Of a DNA stretch of 64,000 bases, positions 1-45,500 are shown piece after piece; position 1 is the stretch's first letter; each line of letters opens with the position of its first letter. The stretch lies in assembly GCA_046328995.1 (NCBI GenBank), contig JAXLVN010000004.1:274599-338598 (forward strand), given 5' to 3'. The stretch comes from Candidatus Kapaibacterium sp. GTDB lineage: Bacteria > Bacteroidota > Ignavibacteria > Kapaibacteriales > UBA961. The position numbers and the translations under genes are program-made. The notes beneath the pieces were generated by a model that saw only the letters and a list, made by a program, of their open reading frames with translations, did no database searches and was not told the DNA's origin.

Positions 1-3000
1 CGGATGGAGGTAGAGAAAGTCAATTTTTTCGATAAATGCTTCAGGATTTAGAACATTTTGCTTGACGTATTCCACCTGTTTTGCATCGTTGTTATTCTGA
101 GCTACGGTGGCGGGGAGCTTCCAGAGATCTTTCGAGTGTTGATTTTGAAACACAATATCTCCATTGCTGTCCACGACGAGAATACCGTCTTTGGAGGAGT
201 GCACGAGTGCTTCGAGGAAGGCAGACTTCGAGCGGAGCATCTCTTCGATACGCTTGCTGATGGTAATATCGTGAAAGCTCCAGACACGGCCGATAATCTC
301 ATCACCCAAGCGTTGGGGGATGGAGTAGCGTTCAAATACACGACCGTCGGTTAATTCAATTTCGTCATACGACGTAGCATCGGGTGTGCGGTAGAGATCA
401 TTAACTTTTGCGATAAATTCTTCTGGATTCTTGAGTTGGGTGGTCGCATAACTGAGGAGAACGCGGTCGTCACCCTGCGATGCAATATGCTCGGGGATAT
501 TCCAGAGGGAGAGAAATTTGGAATTGTAGCTGCTAATGCGGCCATCGAGTCCGACGACGAGAATGCCGTCGGCGGTGGATTCGAGAGCAGCCGTCAGGAG
601 GGAATACGAGTGTTTGAGATCATTTTCAATCTGCTTGCGCTTGGTGATATCAATGACATTATTGAGCACATATTTTTCGGACTCGAGTTCAATCACTTCG
701 GCAAAGTATATTCCATGGCCGGTGCTGCCATTGGCGGTGCGGAATTCGAACTCAAAATCGCGCACCCTGCCGGTGAGTGTGAGCTGATCGAGCGCCTGCA
801 GACGCTCGTCGGGGCTAACCCATAAGTCTAGTGAAATCACAGAAATACCGATCACATCTTCTCGCCTGTAGCCGAAGACATTTTCAAAAGCAGAATTGAC
901 ATCCAGGATTGTGCGATCCGGCTGTCTGGTAAGAATCGATGCATCGGGATTGGCGTGGAATGTTTTTTGGAAGAGAGCATGCATATTGGCCAGATTCTCG
1001 TCGGCTAATTTTTGTTCGGTAATGTCGGTAATAATCCCGATCGAACCAATAATAGCACCAGTATGGTCGTGCCGTGGTGCTCCACTGATTTCTGCCCACA
1101 TTACTTCGCCGGATTTTTTCCGTATCTGAATCTGATATTTATCCGATACATTATGGAGGCGAAGTGCATTTTTCTCGTCGATGATGTGCCGGTCTTCGGC
1201 ACTGAAGAAGAGTTCTTTGCCGACTTTCCCGACGAGCTCTTCAGCGGTATAGCCGAGCATCTCACAGAGTCGTTGATTGACAAACAGAATGACATCATCA
1301 TTATTGACATGCATCACTCCTTCGCTCATACTTTCGATGAGCGTGCGGAATCGTTCCTCGCTATCTCGTAGGGTTGCTATGAAGTTACGCCGTCTCCGCC
1401 AAATAATAATCATCAATGCCACAATACCGCCGAGGAGGATACCGATAGGCAGCAGCACGTATGGATTTCGGTGCAGAGGATAGGGGATGACGAAGGTGGT
1501 AGTATAGCCGGCTTCATCGACCGGCCGGAGAATTTCCTTGACCTGTACCTGCAGGCGGTGGGTCCCGGGCGAAATAGTCGTGGCGACGACCTGATGATTA
1601 CTGCTCCACGCAGAAAATTCACCATCGTCAATCCGATAGCGGGTCTCGAGGTTCTTACTGCTGTAAGCGGCAAAATAACTATACGGCTTCCATTTGAGAA
1701 TGACGGAATTATCTTCAATTGCCGGTGCTGCAAACACCACTCGTGGCGGGTGTCGGGTATCGGAAATTTTATTGATAATAATCACTCCGCCGCCCGAAGA
1801 ACCGATATACACCTTTTCTTTGGTCGGAGTCACAGGCCACAGCCGGGAATTACTGAGACCCGACTGCGCATCAAATGTCTCCCACCTGCCGTTGAAATAA
1901 CTGCTGAGCCCACCCTTGGTAGCGATCCACAGTTTGTTTTGAGCATCGACCTTAATATCCTGAACGGCATCGCTGACGAGTCCGTCGGACGTCGTCCGAT
2001 AGAGAATCGTATCGGCGGCCACAAAGCCGAGACCATTGTGCTGATCGCCGAACCACACACGATTCTGACTGTCAATAGCGATGGTATAAATCCGCTGAGC
2101 CCGTAACCCGCTTGCGGTCGTCCAATGCTTCCAGTGGCCGTCTTTCCATCTGCTGAGACCGGAATATGTGCCGAACCAATACGCACCGTCCCTACTTTCG
2201 GCAAAAGAATACACTCTGCCGCTCTGCAGCTCTTTGCTATGCTCCCACGGGGTGATGCGTCCGCTATCAAGGATGAATACGCCCGGACCCTTGGCAAGAT
2301 TATACTGTAATGTATCATAATTATCGAGACCGAGGAACCAAAGACGTTTCCTCCGGTCGGGAACGATTTTGTGGACCGTACGCGCCCCAAAGGCTTCTTT
2401 CTTACCATAGTGTTCCCACCGCGAGCCGTCATACCGATAGACGCCTTCGGTTCCCACACCGCTGCCGATCCACAGTCCACCTGAAACGTCTTCTGCCAGA
2501 GCGGTCACGCTCCCCAGGGGCACGCCGTTGATCATTTCGATGGAGGTGGTGCTGCCGTTTTTTGCATGAATTTCCACACCGAGCGCACGTGCTACCCATA
2601 CGGCACTGTCGCGGGTAATGAGTATTTCATTTATCGAATTCCGATCGTCGGTCTTCCCTGTGGACCATGATTCCCACCGACGGGACGATGCCTGATACAG
2701 ATAGAGTCCGCTTTCGGTACCTACCCACAGATCGCCGTTAGCGCGATATTTCAGGAAAAGCAGATCTTGCATCTGCCGTGGGGGATTGATATAGTATTGC
2801 CAGATACCCGATTGCCGCAGAAAGATACTCCCTGAGGCGCTGAGGACGAGCATGTCGCCATTGGGTGCTTCGACAATTTTTTGTGGGAATTTCCATTCTT
2901 TTGCATTATGAAAAACCGCCTGTCCGGTGGACTGCGACTCCCACACGCCACGGAGTTCGGAGGGAATTACCACCGAAGCCAGCCAGCCGCCACGTGTATC

Positions 3001-3738
3001 ACTGACGGCCTGATCGATATTCAGCGGGGACGTCGGCGAGGAGAGAGCGGGGGTCCACTGGCCGTTACTCAGACGATAGAGATGATGAGCGGAGCTGAGC
3101 CAGATTTCACCACTGGAGCTGCGGAACATCTGCTTAAAATGCAGAGCTGTCATCTCAGGAGGAAGCTTGTAGGGGGAGATAGTCGTCGTCCGCCCGTCGA
3201 ATTGAAAGAGCTTGGACTTCGACAGCAGCAGATGCTGCCCGTTCGGTAGAGTGGCTATCGCATCGATGGGTAGCCGGCGGCCGTCATGGTAGAGGTTTAT
3301 TTTTGTAAATCCATGAATATCACCGCGGTAGAGAGAGCTGTCTGTGTGAGCAAGGATCGAATTGCCTGCTGCATAGTCGAATTCTCGTATCCTGCTGTCC
3401 GGCAGTCCATCCGAGGGGCGAATGGCTGTCCAATAATACCCGTTGAACCAGGCGAGTCCCCGTTGGGTCGATGCCCATATCGTGCCGTCCGGTGTCTCTA
3501 GGATATCAAAAACCCGATGCGACGGGAGGCCGTCTTCGGTTGTAAACAGCGTCCATCGCCATTGATCATCAAAAATTTTGTGCTGAGCGGTGAGTCGATT
3601 GGTCGAGAAGCTACAGGCCAGAAATACCAGGAAGAAGAGGATGCAGGGCGAGAAACCTACAGTACACCGAGACAACGAGAAAGGGAGGACTCTAGTCGTA
3701 CAAAAGGAGCTATCGTGCTGAATCGATTCGAGTTCCAT
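1..3738 (-). CDS. Sensor protein with N-terminal signal/TM, two-component-regulator beta-propeller repeats, a Y_Y_Y-like region, a TM helix and C-terminal PAS domain(s). The C-terminal output region lies beyond the window start.
   Basis: My own reverse-strand translation starts at ATG 3738..3736 (MELESIQHDSSFCTTRVLPF...). It shows repeated WVGTE/LW..T propeller-like motifs, a TM helix (LLPIGILLGGIVALMIIIW) near 1400, then PAS-like sequence (EERFRTLIESMSEGV..., and ...SAFLEALVHSSKDGILVVDSNGDIVFQNQ near 130-300). The frame is open to position 1 with no stop, which is why the ORF track did not list it. Confidence 0.75.
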   Translation of the reverse strand, partial: MELESIQHDSSFCTTRVLPFSLSRCTVGFSPCILFFLVFLACSFSTNRLTAQHKIFDDQWRWTLFTTEDGLPSHRVFDILETPDGTIWASTQRGLAWFNGYYWTAIRPSDGLPDSRIREFDYAAGNSILAHTDSSLYRGDIHGFTKINLYHDGRRLPIDAIATLPNGQHLLLSKSKLFQFDGRTTTISPYKLPPEMTALHFKQMFRSSSGEIWLSSAHHLYRLSNGQWTPALSSPTSPLNIDQAVSDTRGGWLASVVIPSELRGVWESQSTGQAVFHNAKEWKFPQKIVEAPNGDMLVLSASGSIFLRQSGIWQYYINPPRQMQDLLFLKYRANGDLWVGTESGLYLYQASSRRWESWSTGKTDDRNSINEILITRDSAVWVARALGVEIHAKNGSTTSIEMINGVPLGSVTALAEDVSGGLWIGSGVGTEGVYRYDGSRWEHYGKKEAFGARTVHKIVPDRRKRLWFLGLDNYDTLQYNLAKGPGVFILDSGRITPWEHSKELQSGRVYSFAESRDGAYWFGTYSGLSRWKDGHWKHWTTASGLRAQRIYTIAIDSQNRVWFGDQHNGLGFVAADTILYRTTSDGLVSDAVQDIKVDAQNKLWIATKGGLSSYFNGRWETFDAQSGLSNSRLWPVTPTKEKVYIGSSGGGVIIINKISDTRHPPRVVFAAPAIEDNSVILKWKPYSYFAAYSSKNLETRYRIDDGEFSAWSSNHQVVATTISPGTHRLQVQVKEILRPVDEAGYTTTFVIPYPLHRNPYVLLPIGILLGGIVALMIIIWRRRRNFIATLRDSEERFRTLIESMSEGVMHVNNDDVILFVNQRLCEMLGYTAEELVGKVGKELFFSAEDRHIIDEKNALRLHNVSDKYQIQIRKKSGEVMWAEISGAPRHDHTGAIIGSIGIITDITEQKLADENLANMHALFQKTFHANPDASILTRQPDRTILDVNSAFENVFGYRREDVIGISVISLDLWVSPDERLQALDQLTLTGRVRDFEFEFRTANGSTGHGIYFAEVIELESEKYVLNNVIDITKRKQIENDLKHSYSLLTAALESTADGILVVGLDGRISSYNSKFLSLWNIPEHIASQGDDRVLLSYATTQLKNPEEFIAKVNDLYRTPDATSYDEIELTDGRVFERYSIPQRLGDEIIGRVWSFHDITISKRIEEMLRSKSAFLEALVHSSKDGILVVDSNGDIVFQNQHSKDLWKLPATVAQNNNDAKQVEYVKQNVLNPEAFIEKIDFLYLHP

Positions 3739-3976
3739 GTCTTGATTCTTCTCCCCTCTGCATGCCGGTCAGACCCCACACTATCCGGCTGCGTATGCTA
3801 CTGTAATTCAGGAAGCTTCTGTATTAACTATGTGTATCGGGGTATTCACCGTTACCTAGTGCAAACATAGCTAAATAACACAAAACCACAGAACGGTATT
3901 TTAGAATGGAGGAATTACTTTCCGTCAGAACGGTATAATTCCCGGAAGAATCTCCTCATACCTCATCGCCGGTATC

Positions 3977-5569
3977 CTATCGGCCGGCTACCATCATCGG
4001 TTGCGTTGCCGTGAAATTCCCTGCACGAAAACGGAAAAAATACGTGCCTTCCGGCAGGTACGACGCATCGACCCGGAGCGTATAATGTCCCGCATCCTGT
4101 GTCATCTGATTATCGAGCAGATCCTGTAGTACACGGCCACGCAGGTCTGTCAGACTCAGCGATACGGCCGAGGCAAACGGCACATCATAGCTGATACTCG
4201 TTATCGACGTCACGGGATTCGGGTAATTCTCATATAGCCGGAACCCGAGCGGTACGTCGGTGAGAGTATCGCGAGCGGAGGTCGTCGGAACATTAATAAC
4301 CGGCAATTGCTGGAATTCCTTGAGCATGACGGCTGACAGAGCTGGCTGCTGCGCACCGAACCATTGGGCAAGAACGGACGTGTACACCTGTCGGAAATCA
4401 TACTGCATCTTGAGGTTACCACGGTCAAGATTATTCATGTCGGGATTGATGCCGACAATTCCCGGACGAACATATTTGCCGAAAATGAACATCGGCGCGG
4501 CTGTTCCGTGATCGGTGCCTGCACTCGCATTCGAGGCGACTCTCCGACCAAATTCGGAAAAGGTCATTGCCAGTACTTTATCCTCAGCCCCAAGCTGCCG
4601 GATATCATCCAAAAACGCCGTAACAGCTTCCGAGAGCTTTTGAAGCAAGGTCGCATGATTACCCTTCGTCGTGTCACTCGCCGTTACCTGCGCCGAATGC
4701 GTGTCGAATCCACTTAAGGTCACCGAATAAATCCTCGTCTGTAATCCACCGCCAATGAGTCGGGCTACGATTTTTAATTGATCGGCCAGAGAATTACCGG
4801 TCGGATACGTGGCTTTGTTGCTTGCCTTCGATGCAGCATCTTTGATCTGCTTCGAATAAGCAAATGACTCAATCTGAATTTCCCGAATATACTTCAAGTC
4901 TTTGCCGAATTTCGTGTTCGGCGGGTCTTCAAACCCCGTCGTTCCCGTTCCGTTGACCAGTGTATAAAACGTATTCGGATCCTGCAATGCAATACCCATC
5001 GACTGTCCTGCGCCCTGCAGGGCAAGCGAAGACGAAGCGCCAATCTGAATTGCAAGCGGGTCGGGAGCAGAGGAATTCGGATAGCCGATAGGGTAATTGG
5101 GATAGACTTCACCGAGAAAGCGTCCTGCCCAGCCGGAGACGAGGTATTGATTGGAGTCGGAGCCGGACATGAAAATATCGGTCGAGCGGAAATGCGAGAA
5201 GTTGGAATTAGGATAGGTGACACCCTGAATGACCACTGCTTGTCCGTTGTCAAACAACGACTTAATGCCGGTCATTGCGGGATGGAGACCGGTCTTGTCG
5301 GTGAGCTTGAGCACCGATTGCTCGGCAATCATGATATTCGATCGGAGGGAGGAATAGGCAGAATATTGATCAAGGGAAATGACCGTATTGAGCCCGTCGT
5401 TTCCGCCGGTGAGCTGTATCAGCACGAGGATTCGATCGGTCGCTGCGAGTGTGGTCGCGAGGTCATTGCTCATCATATTCCGGCCATATGCTGTGCCGGG
5501 AAGGCCGCCGATGATAAACGGTGCCGCCAGCACGGGCGACAATTTCTGAATAAAGTCTCTGCGTTTCAT
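3977..5569 (-). CDS. DUF1501 family protein (sulfatase/alkaline-phosphatase-like fold) with a twin-arginine signal and a C-terminal T9SS (Por) sorting domain
   Basis: The N-terminus is MKRRDFIQKLSPVLAAPFIIGGLPGTAYG (RRxFIxK Tat motif). DUF1501 hallmarks are present (LIQLTGGNDGLNTVI, GFDTHSAQ, GTDHGTAAPMFIFG). The last ~80 aa are YPNPVTS...GTYFFRFRAG...MVAGR, typical of a T9SS CTD. Confidence 0.8.
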   Translation of the reverse strand: MKRRDFIQKLSPVLAAPFIIGGLPGTAYGRNMMSNDLATTLAATDRILVLIQLTGGNDGLNTVISLDQYSAYSSLRSNIMIAEQSVLKLTDKTGLHPAMTGIKSLFDNGQAVVIQGVTYPNSNFSHFRSTDIFMSGSDSNQYLVSGWAGRFLGEVYPNYPIGYPNSSAPDPLAIQIGASSSLALQGAGQSMGIALQDPNTFYTLVNGTGTTGFEDPPNTKFGKDLKYIREIQIESFAYSKQIKDAASKASNKATYPTGNSLADQLKIVARLIGGGLQTRIYSVTLSGFDTHSAQVTASDTTKGNHATLLQKLSEAVTAFLDDIRQLGAEDKVLAMTFSEFGRRVASNASAGTDHGTAAPMFIFGKYVRPGIVGINPDMNNLDRGNLKMQYDFRQVYTSVLAQWFGAQQPALSAVMLKEFQQLPVINVPTTSARDTLTDVPLGFRLYENYPNPVTSITSISYDVPFASAVSLSLTDLRGRVLQDLLDNQMTQDAGHYTLRVDASYLPEGTYFFRFRAGNFTATQPMMVAGR

Positions 5570-5636
5570 GATGAATTCCTTCTGTACAAGGATGATATAT
5601 AAGGGAATTAACTGTTGGGTGCTTTGCCGGAATCGT

Positions 5637-7247
5637 TTACATCATTTGAAATTCTGCCATGCGAAACATAAATTTCAGCAGGGCACTGAGCTTGCTTTTG
5701 ACGGCATTTACTTTTTGCGTGCTTGTCGGATTCTTGACGTACTCATTCCAGATGACGCCCCATTCGTAGTCCGGCACTCCGGGGAGCAGCGTATCGGTCA
5801 CAAGACTCGATACTTGCTTTTCGGTGAGCGGGAAGACAAAGAGATCGGCGGCAATATCCCTGATAAGTTGATAGGGGTCGGCAGGATTCGCGCTAACGGA
5901 TTTCACATACGAGAGCACATCGATGCCGGCTTTGGCACCGCTGACAGTGAATCCATTAACAAGTTGATCAGTAAAGCCGTTGCGATTCGGCAGTGTCGCA
6001 GAAGTGATCCATAATTCATAGAAATTCGGTGCCTGATAATAGGCCGCCCAGCCCGCTACGTTGGGATGCTCCATGAGCTCCATCTGCAAGCTTGCTGCAA
6101 TGCTGCGATACCGGTCATAAAAATTATAGGCTCCCAGCGAGTCCCACGGCATTCCGAGCGGGAAATGCTGCACGAGGCCGATGATAAAGTCGAGGGGGTT
6201 TTTAATCATCCCGCCGATGAGAAGCGGGTCATAAAAATGTGCGGAGGTAAAGAGTGCGTGAAGAACCGGCTCGACGGTGAAGTTGTTTGCTCGTAGAATT
6301 GCCGCAAGAGGTTGAATTACCAATGCTTCCGTCGCAGCATCTATTTCATAATGCACGAAATACCGATATAATTTCCGGCAAAAAAACAGGGCAGTTTCTT
6401 CCATGGAGAAGATCATTGCGATGAGATCCTGCACTTCGCTGTCACCGCCGGTCGTGCGCCCTTTTATGACGGCGTTATGAAAGCAGGACGAGAATTGCTT
6501 GTCCTTGCTGTCATGCCTATTTGCCGTGAATTTGCCGGTGGCCGAGAATTCATCGTCCGACCATCCGGTGAGGACGCGGGCTGCTGCCTGAACATCCTGC
6601 TCGGAGTAATGAGTATAATTTCCGGGGGCGATTTCGGGTCCTTTACCGATGGTGAAGAGTTCGAGTAATTCCCGCGCATAATTTTCATTCGGCTTTGTAT
6701 TGGTATTTGTACTTCCGTTGAGATAGCGGAGCATTGCGGGATCCTTGGTCACAGCCGTGACAAGCGAAGTAATATTTCCGAGGGCATTAGTGCGGAAGAG
6801 CACATTTTGCTTGTACATATAGCGGCTGTCATAGACGACTTCGGACTCGGAAACAAAATGATTGTGCCAAAAGACGGTCATTTTTTCGAGAATCGACGGA
6901 TTTGGCGTGGCGAGCCATTGCGTCCACCATGCTTTGATATAGCGGATATACATCGGGTCATTGGCACCGTCACGGGGGAATTCCAGCCAGGAAATTTCCG
7001 TACCGGGCACGGTGGGCTTGGGAATATTCGTTTTGGTATCCAAGAGTGTCGTCACGGCGGCATCCACCCCAAGTGCCGTAAATTCGGCAATTTTTGCTTT
7101 GGGGAATCCGAAGGTCAGCCGTCGGAGCAGGTGAGCTGCATGAAGCTCGGTAAATGGACCGCTGAATTTCGTGAGTTCGCCGGCTGCTGCCTGAGTCGTC
7201 TCGGCTTGACCGGAAAATTGAGCTTTCAAAAAGGAACGTCGATTCAT
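5637..7247 (-). CDS. DUF1800 family protein, the usual partner of DUF1501
   Basis: It carries the AAHLLRRLTFGF motif and an N-terminal MNRRSFLK. It is 536 aa and lies immediately upstream of, and co-directional with, the DUF1501 gene across a 67 nt gap. Confidence 0.8.
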   Translation of the reverse strand: MNRRSFLKAQFSGQAETTQAAAGELTKFSGPFTELHAAHLLRRLTFGFPKAKIAEFTALGVDAAVTTLLDTKTNIPKPTVPGTEISWLEFPRDGANDPMYIRYIKAWWTQWLATPNPSILEKMTVFWHNHFVSESEVVYDSRYMYKQNVLFRTNALGNITSLVTAVTKDPAMLRYLNGSTNTNTKPNENYARELLELFTIGKGPEIAPGNYTHYSEQDVQAAARVLTGWSDDEFSATGKFTANRHDSKDKQFSSCFHNAVIKGRTTGGDSEVQDLIAMIFSMEETALFFCRKLYRYFVHYEIDAATEALVIQPLAAILRANNFTVEPVLHALFTSAHFYDPLLIGGMIKNPLDFIIGLVQHFPLGMPWDSLGAYNFYDRYRSIAASLQMELMEHPNVAGWAAYYQAPNFYELWITSATLPNRNGFTDQLVNGFTVSGAKAGIDVLSYVKSVSANPADPYQLIRDIAADLFVFPLTEKQVSSLVTDTLLPGVPDYEWGVIWNEYVKNPTSTQKVNAVKSKLSALLKFMFRMAEFQMM

Positions 7248-7290
7248 AATGCTCTCCTTCTATGAGAGTTTGGGGTAGGGGGATTGTCAA

Positions 7291-7704
7291 TTACTCTTTC
7301 CACTCTTTCCATACATGAAAGCATTGATGGCATCGGTATTCTTCCCGGGGGAAGAATAAGGGGAATCCGGCAAGGAGCCAGGAAAATGCCATTGAACGCT
7401 TATCTTGGATGAATTCTATTCGGTTACTTCCGCATTCAGGACAGCATCCCCAGTCATCGGAGGAGGGGTCGAGGGCGAATTCCTGCGCCTGCACGAGGGC
7501 GATAATTTCCCTGGCTGCCTGCTCATTGTGATACTCGACCTCTACCCGGACACCGCCAAGGGCATTGGAGTAGAGCCAATTCATCCCAACAAGATTTTTA
7601 TTGGCAATAAAAGCCCGGATACCTTCACCCTCAAGGCGCGAACAGAGCAAATCCGCCTCAAAAACCGTACTGACAACGGCAACGGTAGCAAGCTTTGATT
7701 TCAT
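7291..7704 (-). CDS. DUF2007-like (putative signal-transducing, PII-like) domain protein with a C-terminal Cys-rich zinc-ribbon
   Basis: The N-terminal ~75 aa match the DUF2007 pattern (VAVVSTVFEADLLCSRLEGEGIRAF...VEVEYHNEQAAREII). The C-terminus is CCPECGSN...CHQCFHVW. It sits 43 nt upstream of the DUF1800 gene on the same strand. Confidence 0.45.
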   Translation of the reverse strand: MKSKLATVAVVSTVFEADLLCSRLEGEGIRAFIANKNLVGMNWLYSNALGGVRVEVEYHNEQAAREIIALVQAQEFALDPSSDDWGCCPECGSNRIEFIQDKRSMAFSWLLAGFPLFFPREEYRCHQCFHVWKEWKE

Positions 7705-7950: not shown

Positions 7951-9948
7951 ATGAATTCCATCTACGCAGCCCTCGTGTTTTTTGCCCTGCTCGCGCTACC
8001 GGTACACGCGCAGACTGCTGCTGACGTACGTACGTATTCGGTAACGCTGTCGTCATCGATTTCGGGAGGTGGGAATCCCCGCCTTACTCTTCACTGGCTC
8101 CCCGATACACAGGCAGAATCGTATACCGTCAGCCGAAAATTAGCTACTCAGAATTACTGGACTGATCTGGCCGAGCTCGACTATTCTCAGCAGGAATTCA
8201 CCGATTCGACACTGCAAAGAGGCTTGGAATACGAGTATCAGGTTGCCAAAATATCAAAAATTAACGGCAAGAATTTCACCGGGTATGGGTATATATCTTC
8301 CGGAATTGACGTTCCCCGCCCCGACACCCGCGGCAAAATTCTCCTGCTTATCGACTCTCTCACGAATGCCGCGCTGCCCGAAATCCTTGCCCGCTACGAG
8401 CAGGCGCTTATCGGTGACGGCTGGACGCCAATACGGAGAGTCGTGCCCCGCGCGGAAACCTTCGCCCGGGAAAAAGTGCGGCAGGTAAAGTCTATTATTC
8501 AAAAGGAATACGATGCCGATAAATCGCTTACGACGGTCTTTATGGTTGGCAGGGTAGCAGTACCCTATTCCGGTAATTTTGCTCCCGATAATCACCCGAA
8601 TCATCATGGCGCATGGACGGCAGACTGCTATTACGGCGATGTCTATCCCTCGTCGATCGATGCGCGGTGGTCGGATCTGTATGTCGTTGATACAATGGGC
8701 GAACGCGTGCAGAACTGGAATAAACGCCTCGACGGGAAATTCGACCAATCATCAATTATCAGCGATATCGATCTGGCTGTTGGTCGCGTCGATTTCTATG
8801 ATATGCCGGCAGCGTCTGAGACAGAGACCGAGCTCCTGGCCGACTACCTTGAGCGTAATATCCGCTATCGTACCAAAGAGCTAGCACCGGAATCGAAAGC
8901 ACTTGTGGATGATAATTTCGGCGTCTATGGAGGCGAGGCATTCGCGCAGGCAGGATGGAGTAATTTCGGCGGACTCGTTGGCAACGGCAATATTTCAAAT
9001 GGGAAATTACTCGCTTCCTCGACTCAAAAACCCTACCTCTGGGCCTATGGCTGTGGTCCGGGAGTCTATACAAGTATTGGTGGCGTAGGGAGTTCGGATG
9101 ACTTTCTCAAAACTCCCGTTCCTGCCGTATTCATGATGCTCTTCGGCAGTTATTTAGGTGACTGGGACTCGCAGAATAATGTCCTCCGCGCGGCGCTTGC
9201 CTCCAAGCCGGCGGCGCTCGCCACGATGTGGAGCGGACGTCCGATCTGGCGGGTGCATCCGCTCGGCATGGGCGCCACACTCGGCGAATGCGCGAAGCTG
9301 ACACAGAATAATGACGGGCTGATGTATGCAGGCAATACGTATGCGCGCGGCACACACATTACGCTTCTCGGCGACCCGACCCTCACGATGAATATCATCG
9401 CGCCACCCAAGAATCTCAAACGCACGCAACTCACAACCGGGATGGTTTCTCTCGATTGGACGCCGTCACCGGAGAGCGTGGGAGAGTATTATGTATATAG
9501 GAAAGTAGCACCGACAGGGTTTGAACGTGTAGCAGTAATTGCTTCTCCACTAACGCATTGGACGGATTCTCTGGCGCCGGTTGGATCCGAATATATGGTT
9601 CGCGCGCGCATGCTTGTGCAGTCACCAAGCGGTTCGTATAGTGCCTTTAGTCAAGGAGTATTTACGAGTGCTCCGCTAAGCGCAGATATGGAGGAGGCGC
9701 AGGAAGAAACGATCGACATCTCACCGAATCCTACGAATAATACTGTTCACATTCAACTATCTGCTCCTGCGACAATCGAGGTATATTCGGCATTCGGTCA
9801 GCGGATTGCATTCCTTGGCTCCGGCATGAGCAATGGTGAGTGGAACGGTAAGGATATCAGCGGTTTGCCGGTACCGTCGGGTGTGTATTTCCTGAGAATT
9901 AGTACCTCGAAGTCTATCTTCACACGTCAGCTTGTGGTGATGCGATGA
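7951..9948 (+). CDS. Secreted T9SS cargo protein with fibronectin-III-like domains near both ends and a central domain of unknown function
   Basis: It has a signal peptide (MNSIYAALVFFALLALPVHAQ) and a C-terminal T9SS CTD (ISPNPTNNTVHIQ...GVYFLRISTSKSIFTRQLVVMR). YTVSRK/YYVYRK Fn3-like stretches are present. Confidence 0.7.
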   Translation: MNSIYAALVFFALLALPVHAQTAADVRTYSVTLSSSISGGGNPRLTLHWLPDTQAESYTVSRKLATQNYWTDLAELDYSQQEFTDSTLQRGLEYEYQVAKISKINGKNFTGYGYISSGIDVPRPDTRGKILLLIDSLTNAALPEILARYEQALIGDGWTPIRRVVPRAETFAREKVRQVKSIIQKEYDADKSLTTVFMVGRVAVPYSGNFAPDNHPNHHGAWTADCYYGDVYPSSIDARWSDLYVVDTMGERVQNWNKRLDGKFDQSSIISDIDLAVGRVDFYDMPAASETETELLADYLERNIRYRTKELAPESKALVDDNFGVYGGEAFAQAGWSNFGGLVGNGNISNGKLLASSTQKPYLWAYGCGPGVYTSIGGVGSSDDFLKTPVPAVFMMLFGSYLGDWDSQNNVLRAALASKPAALATMWSGRPIWRVHPLGMGATLGECAKLTQNNDGLMYAGNTYARGTHITLLGDPTLTMNIIAPPKNLKRTQLTTGMVSLDWTPSPESVGEYYVYRKVAPTGFERVAVIASPLTHWTDSLAPVGSEYMVRARMLVQSPSGSYSAFSQGVFTSAPLSADMEEAQEETIDISPNPTNNTVHIQLSAPATIEVYSAFGQRIAFLGSGMSNGEWNGKDISGLPVPSGVYFLRISTSKSIFTRQLVVMR

Positions 9949-10114
9949 GCTGTTGAACAAACCATCCTGGATTTTCTACCTGACTTATAAGGTTTTCGCA
10001 AAACCTGCTATATCTGTTCTTTATCTATCCAAGTATTAGAATCTTACTGCTTGCTAGCCTCAATGACAAAATTACAAGTCATTGAAGCTAGTTACATCAG
10101 GAGTAGAGTAGTAT

Positions 10115-10969
10115 TTACTCTGAATTATTATTAGACCCTTTACTTCGTTTCTTGTCAGCTAAAAGTTGGCGAGCTGATGCTGGACTCACTACTTTCTTAC
10201 CAGTTTTAGCTTCAATCGCTTTACGTGTATTACCCGCAATCGTACCACCTTGGTTGGCTATGATTGTATTTTCTTTGAAAGTCTGAGGTTTCTTTTCCTT
10301 ACTGATTTCTGTCGTTGTTGCCTCGGCAAGCATAGTGAGCACGAGTTCTAAATTGGTCATGTTGTCCCGTAAATTTTCTCGCTTGAGATCTTTATACTGC
10401 TTGTATTGCCGAACATTGAACCCGCTCCATGCTTTTGTGATTTCGTCGGTAAGTAGCGCATATTCCTGTCCTTTTTGTACGCCTCGTTGTTCCCATTCAT
10501 CTGTTAGTTCTTTTCGAACTTCAATACTTTTGAGGCGTTGGTTTATCCATTCTTTGCTATAACCTTTTTTAAGATATGTCTCCATGAGACGGTCAAATCC
10601 GATTTCAGGATTTTCAATCTCATCAATTCTATCGCTTGCAATCGAAGCGAGCCAGACTTTAAAGGGTTCGGCTTTGGGTGATGGAATCGATTGAATTAAC
10701 CTGAAAAGCTGTTCGGTATCAGCGACATCTGTAAGACGCATTTTACCGTCTGCGGCTACCATTTTCAAAGCGTGACAGTTTGTCACGGTTTGATTGCCTT
10801 CTTCCTTGAGCCGTTGTTTTAATTTGCGCCAATATGCTTGCGGATCAATACTTTCTGAAAGTACTCCAACCATATCGACGATTGAAAAATACCATTTTTC
10901 TTCTTGTTCGCTCCAAAGTGAGCGTACTTGCTTTTGCTCAAAAAGCTTGATGCTGGTTTGTAGGGGCAT
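10115..10969 (-). CDS. DinD-like / Bro-N domain protein (DNA-damage-inducible protein D family)
   Basis: The N-terminus (KQVRSLWSEQEEKWYFSIVDMVGVLSESIDPQAYWRKLKQRLKEEG) aligns with E. coli DinD (EYWSARELSQVLEYSEF...RAKEACENSG). The gene is AT-rich relative to its neighbours and flanked by AT-rich intergenic DNA. Confidence 0.6.
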   Translation of the reverse strand: MPLQTSIKLFEQKQVRSLWSEQEEKWYFSIVDMVGVLSESIDPQAYWRKLKQRLKEEGNQTVTNCHALKMVAADGKMRLTDVADTEQLFRLIQSIPSPKAEPFKVWLASIASDRIDEIENPEIGFDRLMETYLKKGYSKEWINQRLKSIEVRKELTDEWEQRGVQKGQEYALLTDEITKAWSGFNVRQYKQYKDLKRENLRDNMTNLELVLTMLAEATTTEISKEKKPQTFKENTIIANQGGTIAGNTRKAIEAKTGKKVVSPASARQLLADKKRSKGSNNNSE

Positions 10970-11273
10970 GGCTGTACAGTTAAGAGTAAGAAAATAAGTG
11001 AAGTAAAGAGAAATGTGAATAGTTGATACCGTATCTTTTGAAGAACGAAACTACGAAAAAATGCACTGTAAGAAAAACGTATTTTCCGGTTGAACGGCAT
11101 GAGCAGCAATTCTTATCTTTAGAGTCTTCGGCAAAGAGTATATCGCAAGCGTTTGATTGAGAGCGGAACTCAGTGCTCTGAAATTTCCCACTACACCCGC
11201 CTATTCACCCAAAAAACGTATTTTCGCGGTGAAATACTATCGTTGTATGCGTCATTTTTAAGGATATTTACCT

Positions 11274-12281
11274 ATGGAAGAACAGAAAAAACCCGTTATT
11301 TTAAGTGGAATCACGCCTTCCGGTGTGCTGATGATTGGTCATTATATGGGGGCAATCCGCAATTGGGTGGCGCTGCAGCACGAGTATGAATGTTTTTTTA
11401 TGGTGGCGGATTTACATGCAATTACCGTACGTCAGACGCCGGCCGATCTGCGCCGCCGCACACTCGATATTGCCGCCGGATATATTGCCTGCGGAATTGA
11501 CCCCGACGTGTGTACGCTGTTCGTACAGTCGCATGTACCTGAGCATACTCAGCTTACATGGGTGCTCGGCAGCTTAACCGGTATGGGCGAGGCGAGCCGG
11601 ATGACGCAATACAAGGAAAAATCAAGCGAAAATTCGGAGAATAATAATGTCGCGCTCTTTACCTATCCTGTTCTTATGGCAGCCGATATCCTCATTTATC
11701 AGGCAGATTTAGTACCCGTTGGCGATGACCAAAAGCAGCATCTTGAGCTCACGCGGAATCTGGCTGAACGGTTTAATTTCCGGTATTCGCCGACTTTTAC
11801 CGTGCCCGAACCCTTTATCCCGCCGGCAGGAGCGCGGGTGATGAGCTTGCAGGAGCCGAATAAAAAAATGTCCAAGTCCGATAAAAATGAAAAAGCTACG
11901 CTCTTTATCTCCGACTCGGACGATGCAATCCGCATGAAAATCAAGCGCGCCGTCACTGACTCCGGCACCGATATTCGATTTGATGAAAAAAATCGTCCGG
12001 GTGTGGCGAATCTGATGACGCTCTATTCGGCCGCGACCGGCAAGTCGAATGCAGAAATTGAACGTGAATTCGAAGGTCTCGGCTATGCAGAATTCAAAGA
12101 GGCAGCGGCAGAGGCGATGGTAGGATTCATGCGCCCGATGCGCGAACGTTTCCTCGAGCTCCGAAGTGATACCACGATGCTCAACGCCCTGCTCGCCAAA
12201 GGAGCAGAGACCGCGCGCAACCGCGCACGACGCACGCTGAGAAAAGTGTATAAGAAGGTAGGTTTTGCTGAATTAGGGTGA
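11274..12281 (+). CDS. trpS: Tryptophan--tRNA ligase
   Basis: Class I HIGH motif (TPSGVLMIGHYMG) and KMSKS motif (KKMSKSDKN) are present. The length of 335 aa is typical. Confidence 0.95.
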   Translation: MEEQKKPVILSGITPSGVLMIGHYMGAIRNWVALQHEYECFFMVADLHAITVRQTPADLRRRTLDIAAGYIACGIDPDVCTLFVQSHVPEHTQLTWVLGSLTGMGEASRMTQYKEKSSENSENNNVALFTYPVLMAADILIYQADLVPVGDDQKQHLELTRNLAERFNFRYSPTFTVPEPFIPPAGARVMSLQEPNKKMSKSDKNEKATLFISDSDDAIRMKIKRAVTDSGTDIRFDEKNRPGVANLMTLYSAATGKSNAEIEREFEGLGYAEFKEAAAEAMVGFMRPMRERFLELRSDTTMLNALLAKGAETARNRARRTLRKVYKKVGFAELG

Positions 12282-23506: not shown

Positions 23507-24811
23507 TTACTGCACGAAAATTGTCTGCTCTTTAGACTCCATTTCAAAAATCGGCACCTTCTCGACGAGTCCCGGATGACCGAGCATACGCAAAAGATAT
23601 GGCGGCAAAGCGCGAAAACGCAGGCGGATGCTCACTTGAATCACGGCTCCTTTGCGTTGTGGTATCGGAATTTGAAATCGATTCATGCGTGATTCAAAGG
23701 GCGGAATCGTTCGATTCTCCACAAAATCAGCTTCCCAGAAAAAAGGCGTTTCGTTGCCATGACGAAGCGCCTTTCCGTTATAGAGCGCCAGGGATTTGTC
23801 CTCACTGATGCGTCCGCTGCGTACTTCATCACTGTGATAGTCCATCAAATCGCCATTTTTATCCAGCAGACCGGAGGCAAAAAGCGTGTCGCCTCTCTCA
23901 TCTTTTGCGATGACTTCGAGCCACATCTGACGTTCGAAAATCGCGCCGGAGGGAATGTTGTGTCCGGTAAGAATGTTTTGGATAACGGCTTGGAGAGATA
24001 GCGTGCCGTCCTGCATGCGAACCGTCTGCGGCGCAATGATGTCCATTTGTACTGAATACGTTAGCATGGAAGCGATTTCATTGATGGTTTCTTCTCGTCC
24101 GGGGAATTCTGTCAGTGGCACATCGACACCGACCATCGTGTGATGATGGACGCGCTCACGGACCGGACCGCCGGTAGCGGCTTTCCCGGTGTAAAATTTC
24201 ATGTGACAGGTTTGGCAGGAGATGAGCCGGCCGGGGAAGGTGCTGTTTTTCCACTCGGTAAAGGTACGTTCGATCGGGAAATTATTCGGCGTATTGAAGT
24301 CATGACACGGACGGCAAACTTCGGAATTATCATCAAATTGTGCCGCATATTCCGAACGGTGATAAGCGTTTGGCAGAGGGTCAGGGATCGGACCGAGGCG
24401 TGTCGAGTCAAGGATGAATTTGAGGGAATTACTCGTTGTCGATTGATTAGGCGCAAGGCGATGACACACGTCGCAGCTGATACCATGGGCAGACATTCCG
24501 GAGAGTTTGTTCCGCTCACCCGAGTGCGCGATATTGTCAATTAACACAGATGTGGGAGAGTGGCATTCGACGCAGAACTGTCCGAGGCGTCCGGCGGAAC
24601 GTAACTGTCCAACGCTATCGAGTGCGAAGAGAACCGGATCTTTCATCGCATAGGCATGCATCGACGCCTCCCATTCACGGAAATGATCCGGATGGCAGGA
24701 GCGGCATTCTTCGGGCGCTGCAAATGCCCGGCGGAAGAGTTCGAGAGAATCTTTCCGTGAGGCGGGCGGGAGCGTAACGGTCTCGACAGTGTCGTTGCAA
24801 CTGCTTGCCAT
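23507..24811 (-). CDS. Multiheme c-type cytochrome (five CXXCH motifs) with an uncertain start
   Basis: The five motifs are CRSCH, CVECH, CDVCH, CRPCH and CQTCH. The first in-frame ATG (MASSCND, 24811) gives no signal peptide. The ORF-track entry 23507..25285 runs upstream into the SUMF1 gene and includes a signal-like hydrophobic stretch that has no ATG/GTG/TTG start within reach. Confidence 0.6.
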   Translation of the reverse strand: MASSCNDTVETVTLPPASRKDSLELFRRAFAAPEECRSCHPDHFREWEASMHAYAMKDPVLFALDSVGQLRSAGRLGQFCVECHSPTSVLIDNIAHSGERNKLSGMSAHGISCDVCHRLAPNQSTTSNSLKFILDSTRLGPIPDPLPNAYHRSEYAAQFDDNSEVCRPCHDFNTPNNFPIERTFTEWKNSTFPGRLISCQTCHMKFYTGKAATGGPVRERVHHHTMVGVDVPLTEFPGREETINEIASMLTYSVQMDIIAPQTVRMQDGTLSLQAVIQNILTGHNIPSGAIFERQMWLEVIAKDERGDTLFASGLLDKNGDLMDYHSDEVRSGRISEDKSLALYNGKALRHGNETPFFWEADFVENRTIPPFESRMNRFQIPIPQRKGAVIQVSIRLRFRALPPYLLRMLGHPGLVEKVPIFEMESKEQTIFVQ

Positions 24812-24839
24812 AAAAGCAAGTAAGCACGCAAGTAAACCC

Positions 24840-25976
24840 TTACGGCAGAGTGCGTACCACCCGAAAGCCCGTCGTGTTGCTGGGATGTTCTGGATATTGA
24901 ATACCACGATTAGATACCCGTAAATTAAAAAGTGAACTCGAAAATGCACCGCCACGCAGCAGGCGTTCAGCGCCCGAGGCAGGACCAAGCGGGTCTGTTG
25001 CCGGTGAGGTACGATAATAACTGTCGAGATAATAGTCCCAGCACCATTCGCTGACATTTCCGATGACATCATAGAGTCCGAAGGCGTTGGGTGTTTTTTG
25101 TCCTGCCGTGTGCGTCTCTTCGTTGGCATTGGCGCAGTACCATGCGAGAGGGGCGAGCACAGGATCGGCGGGTGTGCAGCCGTTATTCGACTGAAGATAA
25201 TCGCCGCCATAGCTGTCGGTGGTCGTGCCGCCGCGGGCTGCATATTCCCACTCGGCTTCGGTGGGCAGGCGGTAACCGCTTGCATTGAAATTACAGACGA
25301 CAGAGTCGTCTATCCATGAATAGCATGGGGTTAGCCCGGCGCGCACGGAAAGCCGATTGCAAAAGTCAAGAGCATCATTCCACGAAATATTCTCGACCGG
25401 CAGCGAATCACCCCGGAACCAACTCGGATTGTACCCCATTAGCATGCGCCATTCACGCTGCAGTACTTCCATTCTTCCAACGGCAATCCGCCGGGAGAGC
25501 GTGATTTGGTGCACGGGCTGTTCGTAAAAATTCTTGTCCGAACCCATCATATATTTCCCGGCGGGGAGCTCGGTCATAGCGATAACCGGATACGCAGAGC
25601 GGATATTAATATGAATAATCGACGTAGCAGCGAGGCGTCCATCGTTGGCATCATAGAGATTCACCCGCAGGAAATACCATCCATCATCAGGAAAACTGAT
25701 ACTAATCTGACGAACGGATGACCGGGGAGCAATGATCGAATCATCGAGCAGCCATTCATAGTGTGGCTGCGAGGGTGGATTGGTGGTAAATGTTGAATAA
25801 ATATAGGGTTGCCCCGGCACACCTTCCAGCGCTGATGCCGTCGCCAGTATCGAGAGCGTACTCTGCGGCAGCCGGACGGTCACCGTTTCCTGCGCGCAGC
25901 TTCCGAGCAATACGCCAAGAGCAGCGTACAGCAGAAGGATAATGGTCGTATGTAGGAACGTCAAGCGACGAAGCAT
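24840..25976 (-). CDS. SUMF1/FGE-sulfatase-domain (formylglycine-generating-enzyme family) protein with signal peptide
   Basis: A C-terminal FGE-sulfatase domain is present (RLPTEAEWEYAARGG...GLYDVIGNVSEWCWD...LRGGAF...RGIQYPEHPSNTTGFRVVR). The N-terminal signal is MLRRLTFLHTTIILLLYAALGVLLGSCAQ. Confidence 0.75.
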   Translation of the reverse strand: MLRRLTFLHTTIILLLYAALGVLLGSCAQETVTVRLPQSTLSILATASALEGVPGQPYIYSTFTTNPPSQPHYEWLLDDSIIAPRSSVRQISISFPDDGWYFLRVNLYDANDGRLAATSIIHINIRSAYPVIAMTELPAGKYMMGSDKNFYEQPVHQITLSRRIAVGRMEVLQREWRMLMGYNPSWFRGDSLPVENISWNDALDFCNRLSVRAGLTPCYSWIDDSVVCNFNASGYRLPTEAEWEYAARGGTTTDSYGGDYLQSNNGCTPADPVLAPLAWYCANANEETHTAGQKTPNAFGLYDVIGNVSEWCWDYYLDSYYRTSPATDPLGPASGAERLLRGGAFSSSLFNLRVSNRGIQYPEHPSNTTGFRVVRTLP

Positions 25977-42550: not shown

Positions 42551-45500
42551 ATGAAATTTTCTACTCTTTGCGTGCTTTTAGCGTGCTTTCTCTCTCTGCG
42601 TGCTGCCGGCCAATCGCTTTCCGTCTTTGGTATTGATGAGAGTCAATTCCCTACGGTCAAAGCGAAGATCTATGCCTTTCAAAAGGATGGAAGTCCTGTG
42701 CCGAATCTCACACCTGCCAAGGTCATTGTGACGGAAAACGGCATATCGCGAACTGTAACGTCCGTGACTTGTCCTGCGCCAAACGTCAAGCAGATATCCC
42801 TCACACTGAGCATCGATGTATCGGGTTCGATGGCAGCCACCGCCGACCCTTTTTCCGAACAGCCCATGCTCCTTGCCAAGGAATATGCACGGTCACTAGT
42901 GGATGCAATGGCCTCGCCGCCGTCGCAGATTACCCTGCAGATGGCTGATCGTAAGGGATATATTCTCCATGACCTTTCAACAGATAAGTCCAAAATTCTT
43001 CAGACTATTGCCGGGCTGTCACCGGCCGGGGGGAATGACTATCTCGATCAATTACTCCATCCGCAGACCGGTGCGCTTGTGCTTGCGCGCGGAGGAGAGT
43101 TCAAGCGCCATGTTCTTGTCGTGACCGATGGACAGTGGGGACGTCTTTCACCGGCCGACTCGGCGCAGTGTGTGGCCTTGTGCAAGGCAGATAGTATCAC
43201 GTTCCATGTGGTGCTTTTAGGTGGCAATCAAGCCGATGAACGTGGTATTATGACCACGTTGCAAGGCATTGCATCCGCAACCGGCGGCGTGGTAGTGACG
43301 AGCATTCGCACGTCCGCCGATGCACGGAAATTTGCACTTGAATTACACCAAAAGATACAGGGCGGTGAGCCATGTGAAATTACCTGGATGTCCGACTCTT
43401 CCTGCACGCGTGAACGCCGGGTAGCCGTGTCGATTCCGGTTACTGCCGTGCTGGCAGAGGCGATGTATCTTGCGCCGGATAATTCCTTTATCGATCTTGC
43501 GTTGAGCACCTCTTCTCTGGCGTTCGGGGCGCTTCCTCCCAAGACTACGGCGCAGCAGACAGTGACCATTACAGCGAGAAATTACCCGGTCATTGTCAGG
43601 AAAATTACCTCTTCTGACCTGCGCTTCTCGGTGATTACCTACGGAGGCACGGCGCCGCCATTTGTGCTGCAACCGGGTAATTCCCGCATTCTCACCGTGC
43701 AATTTGCCCCAACCGATTCGGGGTATTCTTTCTCTGAAATACAGATTGCTCATAATGCCTGCCTGCCGACGACGGTGCAGGTCTCGGGCGGCTTTCCGTT
43801 TAAGAGGGCAAGTGTACCGTCACTCCGACTTATCACGCCGAATGGCGGTGAACGCTATGGTGTAGGCGAGAGACCGTCGGTTGAGTGGGCAGGAGTCTTG
43901 CCGGAAGACACGATGAGAATTGAAGTGAGCACCAATAATGGCGACAGCTGGACCACCCTCGCAGAGCGTGCGACCGGACTGACGCGCACATGGCAGGTGC
44001 CCTATAGAGTGAGCGACAGCTGCCGCATGAGAATTACCCAACTCCGCCCGACGAACTCCGTTGCGACCACGGTGGTCTTCCCCAAAAGCAGGATGCCGCA
44101 GTGGAATTCAACGGGTAATCAACTCATGACCGTGGCGCTGACCGATAACTCCTCCAAAGTCTGGTATTCGGAGTCCGGTCTGCCAATTACATCCTATCGC
44201 GGACCCGGCAGCAGACTCACGCGTATCGGGTGGAATACAGCCAAGCGCTTGATTGCGATGGAATATGACGGTAATTCAATTTCAATTTTTAATGATTCAA
44301 CGGGTCAGAAAGTAATTACAAATTATGGACTCTTTGAATTGTGGAATCCCGCCGGCGATAGAATCCTCACCCGCGACGGATATATCTTGGATGAGAATGC
44401 CTTCTTAATCCGCCGCCTCGAAGACCCGTTTGAAGACTATGGCGCCGACTCGTTCCGCGTGTTCACAATGCATAAATGGAGTCCGACACGCGAAAATGTC
44501 ATCGCCGTGCAAAAAGGTGTAGCCGGCGGCGGTGATTCGCTTCGAATGTGGGATGTGTCGAAGGAAACATCCCAACCCGCCAAACTCATCAAGTCGGTAG
44601 CGGCACATAATGGAACGATTTACGCGTGTGAATGGAGTCCGTCCGGAAATCGTATCGCCTCAATCGGCGGTGATTCAACGGGTGTGGTCTATAATTTTAT
44701 CCTCAATGCTCCCATACGCTTAGTCGGTCATACAGCAGAAGTACGTTCGCTTGCCTGGAGCGCAGGTGACCGCTATGTGGCAACGGGCAGTGAAGATAAC
44801 ACGGCTAAGGTTTGGCATACGGGAACAGGGGAAATCAAGCGAACGCTTGATCATGGCGGCGCAGTGAGCGCGGTGGCGTTTAGCTTGGATGGTCGCTTGC
44901 TCGCAACGGGTGGAAAGGATTATATCATTAAGATATGGGAGGTAGAGACCGGTGGGCTGCTGCGTACGTTGCGTGGTCATACGAATGCTATCCTGACGCT
45001 TGGGTTTAGTCCCGAAGGGCGGCGCCTTATCAGCACGAGCAGCGACAGCACGGTGCGTATTTGGGATATTGATTCGACAGAAATTCAGCAGGTAATTTCT
45101 GAGAATGTCTGGAAAATCGAGCAGCCGCAGCTTCAAACAAATGAAATAGACTTTCAGCAGGTGCAGTTCGGCAGTGCGAAGGATTCGGTCGTCAAAAACT
45201 TCGTTAAGAACACCGGCACTCGACCTGTTCTCATCGACAGTATCCGCATTCAGGGCGGCAATGCAGAAGACTTCTCGGCGACGAATGGTTTTTCGGGGTT
45301 CATGCTGCAGTCCGGCGAGAGCCGCACGGTTGAGGTACAGTTCAAGCCCACAAAAGTCGGCAAGCGGACTTCCGTTGCGGAGGTGTATGTCGGTGGATTT
45401 AGTTTCCCGATACTGCTCAGCGGCGAGGCAGTATTAACGGCTGAGGTGTTGTCGGCGGATATCGACTTCCGCAAAGTAGCTCTTGGCTCGGCAAGAGATA

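Follow-up and report, generated by a model that had tools for sequence, protein, structure and literature searches.

Type IX secretion system (T9SS) cargo is generally assumed to leave the cytoplasm by the general secretory (Sec) pathway. Reviews describe all T9SS effectors as Sec-dependent (PMC11285876, PMC9251779), and the rules of the predictor T9GPred, built on 102 experimentally identified cargos, demand the absence of a twin-arginine translocation (Tat) signal. The premise of the original prediction, that T9SS cargo proteins are normally Sec substrates, is thus borne out, and a full-text literature search pairing T9SS with Tat terms brought up no account of T9SS cargo that depends on Tat. 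(A search for literature on T9SS in Kapabacteria gave nothing relevant.) Here we describe a DUF1501 gene, together with the DUF1800 gene preceding it, in 64,000 nucleotides of DNA from Candidatus Kapaibacterium sp. (contig JAXLVN010000004.1, positions 274,599 to 338,598; this whole stretch is called the window below). Like canonical type-A cargo (Flavobacterium johnsoniae ChiA, RemA and NucA; Porphyromonas gingivalis RgpB; Tannerella forsythia mirolase), the DUF1501 protein ends in a predicted beta-sandwich C-terminal domain (CTD) of about 80 amino acids (aa). Canonical cargo, however, has Sec signal peptides, whereas the DUF1501 family has a conserved twin-arginine leader.

The passage of a Tat substrate across the outer membrane has a precedent in the type II secretion system (T2SS). 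In Pseudomonas aeruginosa, PlcH, PlcN, the PhoD-like phosphatase PA3910 and PA4140 follow an established 'mosaic' Tat-then-T2SS route, several of these substrates being phosphoesterases induced by phosphate starvation (PMC4899797). There, as proposed here, a folded enzyme crosses the inner membrane by Tat and is then handed to an outer-membrane system that accepts folded proteins; the outer-membrane step of the DUF1501 protein would differ in using T9SS, through a discrete CTD, rather than a conformational T2SS signal. T9SS passage takes place through the large SprA barrel (PMC9251779), and GFP and mCherry, when a CTD is fused to them, are exported by T9SS already folded in the periplasm (PMC11285876). 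Because T9SS moves folded periplasmic proteins, a Tat-then-T9SS route would be mechanistically unsurprising.

DUF1501 proteins themselves have been encountered in two other settings. In Planctomycetes and Verrucomicrobia, Tat-motif DUF1501 proteins occur in modules with a large upstream partner, a cytochrome-like PSCyt/PSD protein and not DUF1800 (PMC3542564), while DUF1800/DUF1501 pairs lie beside bacterial chitin synthases (PMC5122149). As with the pair described here, both arrangements are conserved and uncharacterised; unlike the window protein, their DUF1501 members have no T9SS tail. The same two studies independently predicted DUF1501 proteins to be Tat substrates, in bacteria of the Planctomycetes-Verrucomicrobia-Chlamydiae (PVC) group (PMC3542564) and in Proteobacteria (PMC5122149).

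The features of the locus are listed below, the evidence for each being given in brackets (ORF, open reading frame; AF2, AlphaFold2 model).

3977-5569, minus strand: DUF1501-CTD gene (530 aa), with predicted Tat leader, alkaline-phosphatase-superfamily catalytic domain and T9SS type-A CTD (ORF, Pfam, NCBIfam, AF2, Foldseek)
5483-5569, minus strand: putative twin-arginine signal peptide, DUF1501 residues 1-29 (MKRRDFIQKLSPVLAAPFIIGGLPGTAYG, then R30), with predicted signal peptidase I site A27-Y28-G29 (conservation, composition)
4286-5437, minus strand: DUF1501 catalytic domain, residues 45-428 (invariant columns, AF2, fold match)
3980-4237, minus strand: DUF1501 T9SS type-A CTD, residues 445-530, with YPNP...D-x-x-G-R...G-T-Y...terminal basic residue (PF18962, TIGR04183, AF2)
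5637-7247, minus strand: DUF1800 gene (536 aa) for an all-alpha protein with no signal peptide; obligate operon partner, upstream (PF08811, AF2, synteny)
7224-7247, minus strand: DUF1800 N-terminal MNRRSFLK, an RR motif without a hydrophobic (h-) region, or 'half signal' (run length, hydropathy, AF2)
7291-7704, minus strand: DUF2007-like protein with four Cys residues (Cys4; 137 aa), 43 nt upstream of DUF1800, probably outside the module (PF09413 sub-threshold, Cys pairs)

The 530-, 536- and 137-aa ORFs lie on the minus strand at the positions given in the original prediction, and every string that it quoted (KRRDFIQK, YPNPVTS, GTYFFRFRAG, LLRRLTFG and MNRRSFLK) was found.

Twin-arginine leader and type IX tail of the DUF1501 family

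The C-terminal end of the DUF1501 protein is recognized by two profiles of T9SS sorting domains, both above their curated cut-offs: Por_Secre_tail (PF18962) scores 33.1 bits (cut-off 27) over residues 449-523 and TIGR04183 of NCBIfam scores 30 bits (cut-off 23). The two matches span residues 449-526 of 530 and thus occupy the extreme C-terminus, as in a type-A sorting domain. The sorting domain that had been proposed for this protein is therefore upheld. In an alignment of 42 full-length, genome-derived orthologues (mean column identity 33%), residues P450, N451, P452, G478, G508 and Y510, which belong to the P-N-P, D-x-x-G-R (its G) and G-x-Y signatures, are invariant or nearly so. The AF2 model places six beta strands at 456-527 with a predicted local distance difference test score (pLDDT) of 86-95, consistent with a beta-sandwich, and separates them from the catalytic domain by a low-confidence linker (429-438). 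When the orthologue-family profile was compared with all PDB sequences, only T9SS cargo CTDs matched at an expectation value (E) below 0.01. The matches are to the solved domains 8glk_D and 8glj_D (E 7e-4), one of which was named by its depositors a Por secretion system C-terminal sorting domain protein, and to the Tannerella mirolase CTD 8qb1; they align end to end. The window encodes five CTD proteins, DUF1501 included, and the other four suggest that this genome has a working T9SS.

At the other end of the protein stands the sequence K-R-R-D-F-I-Q-K, which conforms to the Tat consensus S/T-R-R-x-F-L-K of the boundary between the n- and h-regions. Residues R3, R4 and F6 are invariant in the 42-orthologue alignment; judged against the mean column identity of that alignment, the conservation of RR-x-F and of the CTD signature residues is more than chance. 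A nearest-cluster sample of 120 protein clusters (50-83% identity), 117 of whose leaders were assessed, gave the consensus [K/N]-R-R-D-F-[L/I]-[R/K]. The RR pair was present in 117 of the 120; the remaining three sequences begin inside the leader and look N-terminally truncated. The uncharged run of these leaders is long (median 17 aa), and their h-region is rich in Pro and Gly. Its best 10-residue Kyte-Doolittle mean is 1.94, compared to 3.03 for the Sec leaders of neighbouring CTD proteins. A basic residue closing the h-region is a classical Sec-avoidance feature, and the uncharged run ends in K or R in 106 of the 117 leaders. A27 is nearly invariant across orthologues, which points to an A-x-G/A signal-peptidase site after residue 29 (A27 being position -3), so that signal peptidase I would be expected to cut after A-Y-G29. 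The leader is disordered in the AF2 model. The Tat assignment of DUF1501 rests on motif, composition and conservation. Tat-type leaders are also found on the DUF1501 members of the pairs inspected in Binatia, Methylococcaceae, Vibrio, Rhodobacter and Phyllobacterium. One departure from the motif was seen in Cytophagaceae/Spirosoma metagenome-assembled genomes (MAGs), where S-R-K-Q-F-L replaces RR while the CTD is kept (loci L047, 6001-7545; L048, 2441-3982; L067, 6001-6477). These leaders may be a natural RK variant or may mark a shift towards Sec export.

The combination is not peculiar to this locus. PF07394 (DUF1501) and PF18962 are both precomputed in 104 of the 120 nearest clusters, the other 16 being similar in length, and 66 loci came from a scan in which each GTDB species was represented by a single genome. 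Among the 42 full-length orthologues, PF07394 is found in all and Por_Secre_tail in 38 (E<=0.01). Carriers of the fusion include Ignavibacteria, Kapaibacteria, MAGs labelled Chlorobiota, Saprospiraceae, Chitinophagales and one Flavobacteriales MAG, and, among cultured organisms, three species of Hymenobacter as well as Arsenicibacter rosenii. Orthologues from outside the Fibrobacterota-Chlorobiota-Bacteroidota (FCB) group stop directly after the catalytic domain (Binatia, Methylococcaceae, Planctomycetota); those of Vibrio, Rhodobacter and Phyllobacterium likewise have no CTD. The Tat leader is kept in the non-FCB orthologues. The CTD is thus confined to FCB-group lineages, its presence there and absence elsewhere indicating that the tail tracks lineages with T9SS-type sorting. 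Throughout the clade of FCB-group orthologues, Tat leader plus CTD is the norm. The original prediction was therefore right that the two signals coexist, but the combination, whose routing it called unusual, is not unusual for this protein; and although it held that finding the fusion commonly annotated and characterised would remove its novelty, the fusion proved common without being characterised, its members being labelled only 'DUF1501 domain-containing protein'. The architecture, of which the window locus is an ordinary example, is widespread but has gone unreported. Three loci from Saprospiraceae and Bacteroidetes MAGs carry longer C-terminal extensions, with total lengths of 649-684 aa (L052, 1762-3708; L054, 6001-7947; L059, 6001-8052). 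The L059 protein ends in a dockerin- or EF-hand-like repeat, DGNITTTDFNIY, and not in a type-A CTD.

As a control, a CTD hidden Markov model (HMM) of our own making was run against all ORFs of 150 aa or more in the window plus the related loci, 864 kb of DNA altogether. The search returned 93 C-terminal matches. The 66 that belong to the DUF1501 set have RR in 63 cases. The 27 outside this set include three DUF1501 fragments or variants; of the 24 that remain, just two show an RR pattern. The context of these two is upstream or very hydrophobic, and in one of them the pattern is not kept in the orthologue. Those of the remaining CTD proteins that have a clear start codon bear leaders that look Sec-type, among them three other CTD proteins of the window (MNSIYAALVFFALLALPVHAQ, MKFSTLCVLLACFLSLRAAGQ and MKTSLILLLLTFITIANICNAQ).

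DUF1800 and the proposed export route

DUF1800 lies directly upstream of DUF1501 at every related locus with enough upstream DNA. The intergenic gap has a median of 35 nt, and at some loci the two genes overlap by 4 nt. The description of the two genes as a conserved pair therefore holds. Shine-Dalgarno-like AAGGA(G) sequences precede the start codons of both genes (AAGGAG in front of the DUF1800 ATG); the counts from promoter and terminator scans did not depart from those expected on shuffling. Two MAGs contain two paralogous DUF1800/DUF1501-CTD pairs each (L012 and L028 in CALCNX01; L025 and L062 in JANYDO01), from which it follows that the module has been duplicated within lineages. The paralogous copies are about 49-55% identical to the window protein.

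The DUF1800 protein was assigned correctly in the original prediction: PF08811 matches residues 39-484 with 306 bits, far past the threshold of 26.1. A protein that NCBI lists from a Candidatus Kapaibacterium MAG is 100% identical to it. Its AF2 model (pLDDT 88, predicted template modelling score 0.88) is mainly alpha-helical, with residues 1-19 disordered. No relative was found in the PDB by sequence, by family profile or by Foldseek (best E 0.83), and the modelled fold appears structurally uncharacterised. Invariant polar motifs (FWHNHF, NENYARE..ELFT.GKG and RHD...K) are present, and to go by these the protein may bind a ligand or may itself be catalytic.

The original prediction had hinted at a second Tat leader, on DUF1800, and this hint did not hold up. 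MNRRSFLK is followed in the window protein by AQFSGQAETTQAAAGELTK, a hydrophilic stretch; when the segment before the LLRR motif was measured, the longest uncharged run was 7 residues and the best 10-residue hydropathy 0.27. Generic Tat HMMs gave 13 bits on this N-terminus. Among 120 DUF1800 orthologues, 64 have an N-terminal RR-x-[FLIVMWY]-[LIVMF], typically M-[NKD]-R-R-x-F-[LI], followed by polar low-complexity sequence (median longest uncharged run 10 aa, median best hydropathy 0.87). In the 56 remaining orthologues the leader is short and contains neither RR motif nor signal, for example MALLDKYPATLTAKTAEHLLRR. A conserved RR 'half signal' without a hydrophobic core is not known to have been described, either for Tat substrates or for hitch-hikers. 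Elsewhere the DUF1800 leader varies: it is Sec-like in Methylococcaceae and Phyllobacterium, a plausible Tat leader in Hymenobacter, and missing in Binatia, Vibrio, Rhodobacter and Cytophagaceae.

An arrangement of this sort is familiar from Tat hitch-hikers. Two accounts (PMC4273604, PMC10924467) present, for the small and large subunits of NiFe hydrogenases, DmsAB and PaoABC, one subunit that bears the leader and a leaderless partner that works outside the cytoplasm. The same asymmetry is seen in the window's clade, in which DUF1800 has no signal peptide and DUF1501 has a Tat leader, and it is this asymmetry that leads us to predict a hitch-hiker complex. That the leader is variable on DUF1800 and the Tat leader constant on DUF1501 also fits the pattern, and the export leaders that DUF1800 possesses in some lineages imply an extracytoplasmic workplace. 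The differences are that the known hitch-hikers are demonstrated complexes, whereas the pairing of DUF1800 with DUF1501 is deduced from a sequence pattern, that an RR-x-F-L without an h-region, which DUF1800 often keeps, has not been described for them, and that a second step, by T9SS, would follow here.

We accordingly favour, with a probability of roughly 0.6, a route in which DUF1501 is exported folded by Tat and then passed on by T9SS, with DUF1800 as its hitch-hiking partner. The two sorting signals of DUF1501 would act in series. The protein would fold, and probably load metal, in the cytoplasm, where DUF1800 would most likely bind it. It would cross the inner membrane by Tat through the 29-residue leader, taking DUF1800 along, and be cut by signal peptidase I; the CTD would then route DUF1501 across the outer membrane by T9SS. 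Hitch-hiking by DUF1800 would explain why DUF1501 uses Tat rather than Sec. A more elaborate version is tentative: DUF1501 and DUF1800 might travel as a heterodimer, the former presenting a full signal and the latter its 'half signal' to TatBC, with T9SS subsequently exporting the enzyme, or possibly the whole complex, by means of the single CTD of DUF1501 in the FCB group.

Several observations weigh against the Tat-then-T9SS route. None of the 20 window ORFs scanned with Pfam or NCBIfam is a T9SS component, and neither a TatA-like motif nor a TatC match was detected in the 64-kb window. All 102 verified cargos behind T9GPred are Sec-type, so that a Tat-dependent cargo would be without precedent. 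The window leader has no basic residue inside its c-region, R30 standing at +1 of the predicted site. When the isolated 50-residue N-terminus was searched with PF10518 and TIGR01409, DUF1501 gave no match even at E<=10, and only three of the 42 orthologues reach E 0.01 with PF10518; generic Tat HMMs were judged uninformative on such short signals, and for this reason tests of conservation and composition were used in their place. Finally, DUF1800 could equally stay in the cytoplasm, the complex being itself a prediction.

The last point leads to the alternative that fares best. DUF1800 might be a cytoplasmic maturation or proof-reading factor, like the chaperones of Tat redox enzymes, so that DUF1501 alone would take the route through Tat and T9SS; the RR motif of DUF1800 would then be vestigial or serve for recognition of the chaperone type. 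With no hydrophobic core behind it, this motif is reminiscent of the vestigial Tat motifs of cytoplasmic-facing enzymes such as NarG. DUF1800 has neither an h-region nor a CTD, and a globular heterodimer of 60 and 55 kDa would be a bulky cargo for T9SS. However, the export leaders of the Methylococcaceae, Phyllobacterium and Hymenobacter proteins speak for an extracytoplasmic site, and at 536 aa DUF1800 far exceeds the known Tat chaperones in size. We regard a purely cytoplasmic role as a serious but doubtful possibility.

It is improbable, in our estimate, that the CTD-like tail serves some purpose other than secretion, in which case DUF1501 would be periplasmic or anchored in the inner membrane and its Ig-like tail would contribute to binding or stability. 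The profile scores exceed their cut-offs only modestly (33 vs 27 and 30 vs 23 bits), PF18962 is not precomputed in 16 of the 120 nearest clusters despite their similar length, the tail-less orthologues from outside the FCB group function, and the T9SS machinery was not found in the 64-kb window. Yet the tail is strictly C-terminal and its type-A signature residues are nearly invariant; nothing but solved cargo CTDs matches it in the PDB at the threshold used; and it occurs only in lineages rich in other CTD proteins, of which the window alone holds four more.

Still less probable is an ordinary Sec-then-T9SS passage in which the leader is a functional Sec signal and the two arginines merely supply n-region charge. 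This would agree with all proven T9SS cargo being Sec-type and with the failure of PF10518 and TIGR01409 to match the window leader, and the S-R-K-Q-F-L leaders of the Cytophagaceae/Spirosoma subclade indicate that RR is not absolutely required everywhere. But a Sec n-region requires charge, not a fixed RR-x-F-[LI]-[KR], and R3, R4 and F6 do not vary over the 42 orthologues; the only clusters lacking RR look truncated. The h-region, moreover, is long, contains much Pro and Gly, is far less hydrophobic than the Sec leaders of the same genomes, and usually has the basic 'Sec-avoidance' end. The independent prediction of DUF1501 proteins as Tat substrates in Proteobacteria and the PVC group points the same way.

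The catalytic domain of DUF1501

The DUF1501 assignment was substantiated by a PF07394 score of 69 bits (cut-off 27), although only residues 253-377 align. The AF2 model (mean pLDDT 82) delimits a catalytic domain at 45-428. A single-sequence search of the PDB with DUF1501 found no solved structure. In a Foldseek search, the model retrieved choline and aryl sulfatases, LtaS and YejM with probability 1.0 and E between 7e-7 and 1e-5, at identities of only 10-12% and a template modelling (TM) score of about 0.35. By its model, DUF1501 would have the fold of the alkaline-phosphatase superfamily, as a distant member. The residues invariant among the orthologues are G55-G56-N57-D58, S125-H126, D289 and H291, and D353-H354. 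In the model, D58 comes just after the strand 47-56 and S125 just before the helix 126-135. D58 is presumably the counterpart of the metal-binding acidic residue in LtaS, EptA and the sulfatases, S125 that of their nucleophile and D353-H354 that of their distal D-H pair. Ser125 is thus the likely candidate nucleophile and D58, D353 and H354 are candidate metal ligands, with D289 and H291 probably contributing.

With S1 sulfatases, LtaS and YejM/PbgA the domain would share the core fold, a conserved Asp following strand 1, a Ser where a helix begins and, towards the C-terminus, a D-H pair; it differs from them in the want of a sequence-level match, in the low TM score and in having no formylglycine motif. 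The sequence around the candidate nucleophile, N-x-S125-H-F-R-S, does not contain C/S-x-P/A-x-R: position +2 is neither Pro nor Ala, and position +4 is not Arg. The absence of this motif makes phospho- or sulfo-transfer by a Ser nucleophile likelier than the chemistry of a classical sulfatase. The label 'sulfatase-like' can therefore be kept for the fold but not for the formylglycine chemistry. Most likely, DUF1501 would be a metal-dependent hydrolase or transferase of phospho- or sulfo-esters acting on an extracellular substrate.

Neighbouring genes and implications

The 137-aa protein upstream of the pair had been put forward as a DUF2007 protein with a zinc ribbon and as a possible regulatory partner. 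Two CxxC pairs are indeed present (Cys 88/91 and 125/128). Neither profile assignment held, though: PF09413 gave 21.4 bits (E 2.8e-4), below its gathering threshold of 25.7, NCBIfam DUF2007_rel gave 15.4 against a cut-off of 55, and the zinc-ribbon HMM match (E 0.06) is not significant. By these profiles the protein is probably a distant relative of DUF2007 rather than a member by the curated criterion. In tblastn searches, no homologue was found within about 6-8 kb of the pair at any of 70 related loci; the gene is kept, at 90% identity, only in the sister species (83%-identical), where the flanking genes for tryptophanyl-tRNA synthetase (TrpRS) and for a 665-aa CTD protein are syntenic as well. 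With the whole neighbourhood syntenic there, the adjacency is ascribed to recent common descent and is most likely incidental. A three-gene module of DUF2007, DUF1800 and DUF1501 under a zinc-ribbon regulator is thus very improbable in spite of the shared strand, the 43-nt spacing and the conservation in the sister species, given the sub-threshold assignment and the 0/70 count.

The 665-aa protein (7951-9948, plus strand, divergent) has a Sec leader and a strong T9SS CTD (43 bits); beyond these, no domain was recognised in it. In L003 and L004, too, a homologue (33% identical) is found some 2 kb upstream of the DUF1800/DUF1501 pair. On the other side of the pair, an ORF of at least 1246 aa (1-3738, minus strand like DUF1501) follows 238 nt downstream of DUF1501 and runs past the window start. 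It encodes a Reg_prop beta-propeller and a PAS sensor domain, and it was missing from the ORF list because it is open-ended; in the sister species (L071-L073) a large same-strand downstream gene is also called. RNA genes were considered for the seemingly ORF-free interval 1-3976, but Rfam and ARAGORN were negative there, and the region is this large sensor gene at the window edge.

T9SS-type tails occur in the window at three further places: 42551-46015 (plus strand; WD40 and ASH/Ig domains), 49034-50461 (minus strand; Reg_prop) and 51727-55152 (minus strand; 1141 aa, with a weak metalloprotease match). A clear Sec-type leader is present on two of these proteins; where the 1141-aa ORF starts is uncertain. 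A BRO-N domain protein (10115-10969, minus strand) sits in a low-GC island within 9500-11500 (GC fraction 0.40-0.45, as against about 0.51 in the flanks), which is possibly of phage or mobile-element origin. A 592-aa protein (23507-25285, minus strand) has multihaem cytochrome c signatures (Cytochrome_C554, NapC/NirT-like).

On balance, the architecture of the DUF1501 family appears rather likely to extend the Tat-to-outer-membrane 'mosaic' principle to T9SS, against the assumption that cargo is Sec-only. If so, T9SS would, like T2SS, accept folded or cofactor-loaded proteins exported by Tat, and the DUF1501-CTD proteins would be the first Tat-dependent family of T9SS cargo. At present this family is filtered out of predicted T9SS secretomes, T9GPred rejecting proteins with a Tat signal. 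The gains would include corrected secretome prediction and, possibly, the display of folded, metal-loaded enzymes on Bacteroidota surfaces. Were the heterodimer to prove real, it would provide a general reason for the use of Tat by DUF1501 in all phyla and a role for two large families of hitherto undefined function. The abundant DUF1501 and DUF1800 proteins would also gain an experimental handle, since they would be surface-exposed in the cultivable Hymenobacter and Arsenicibacter.

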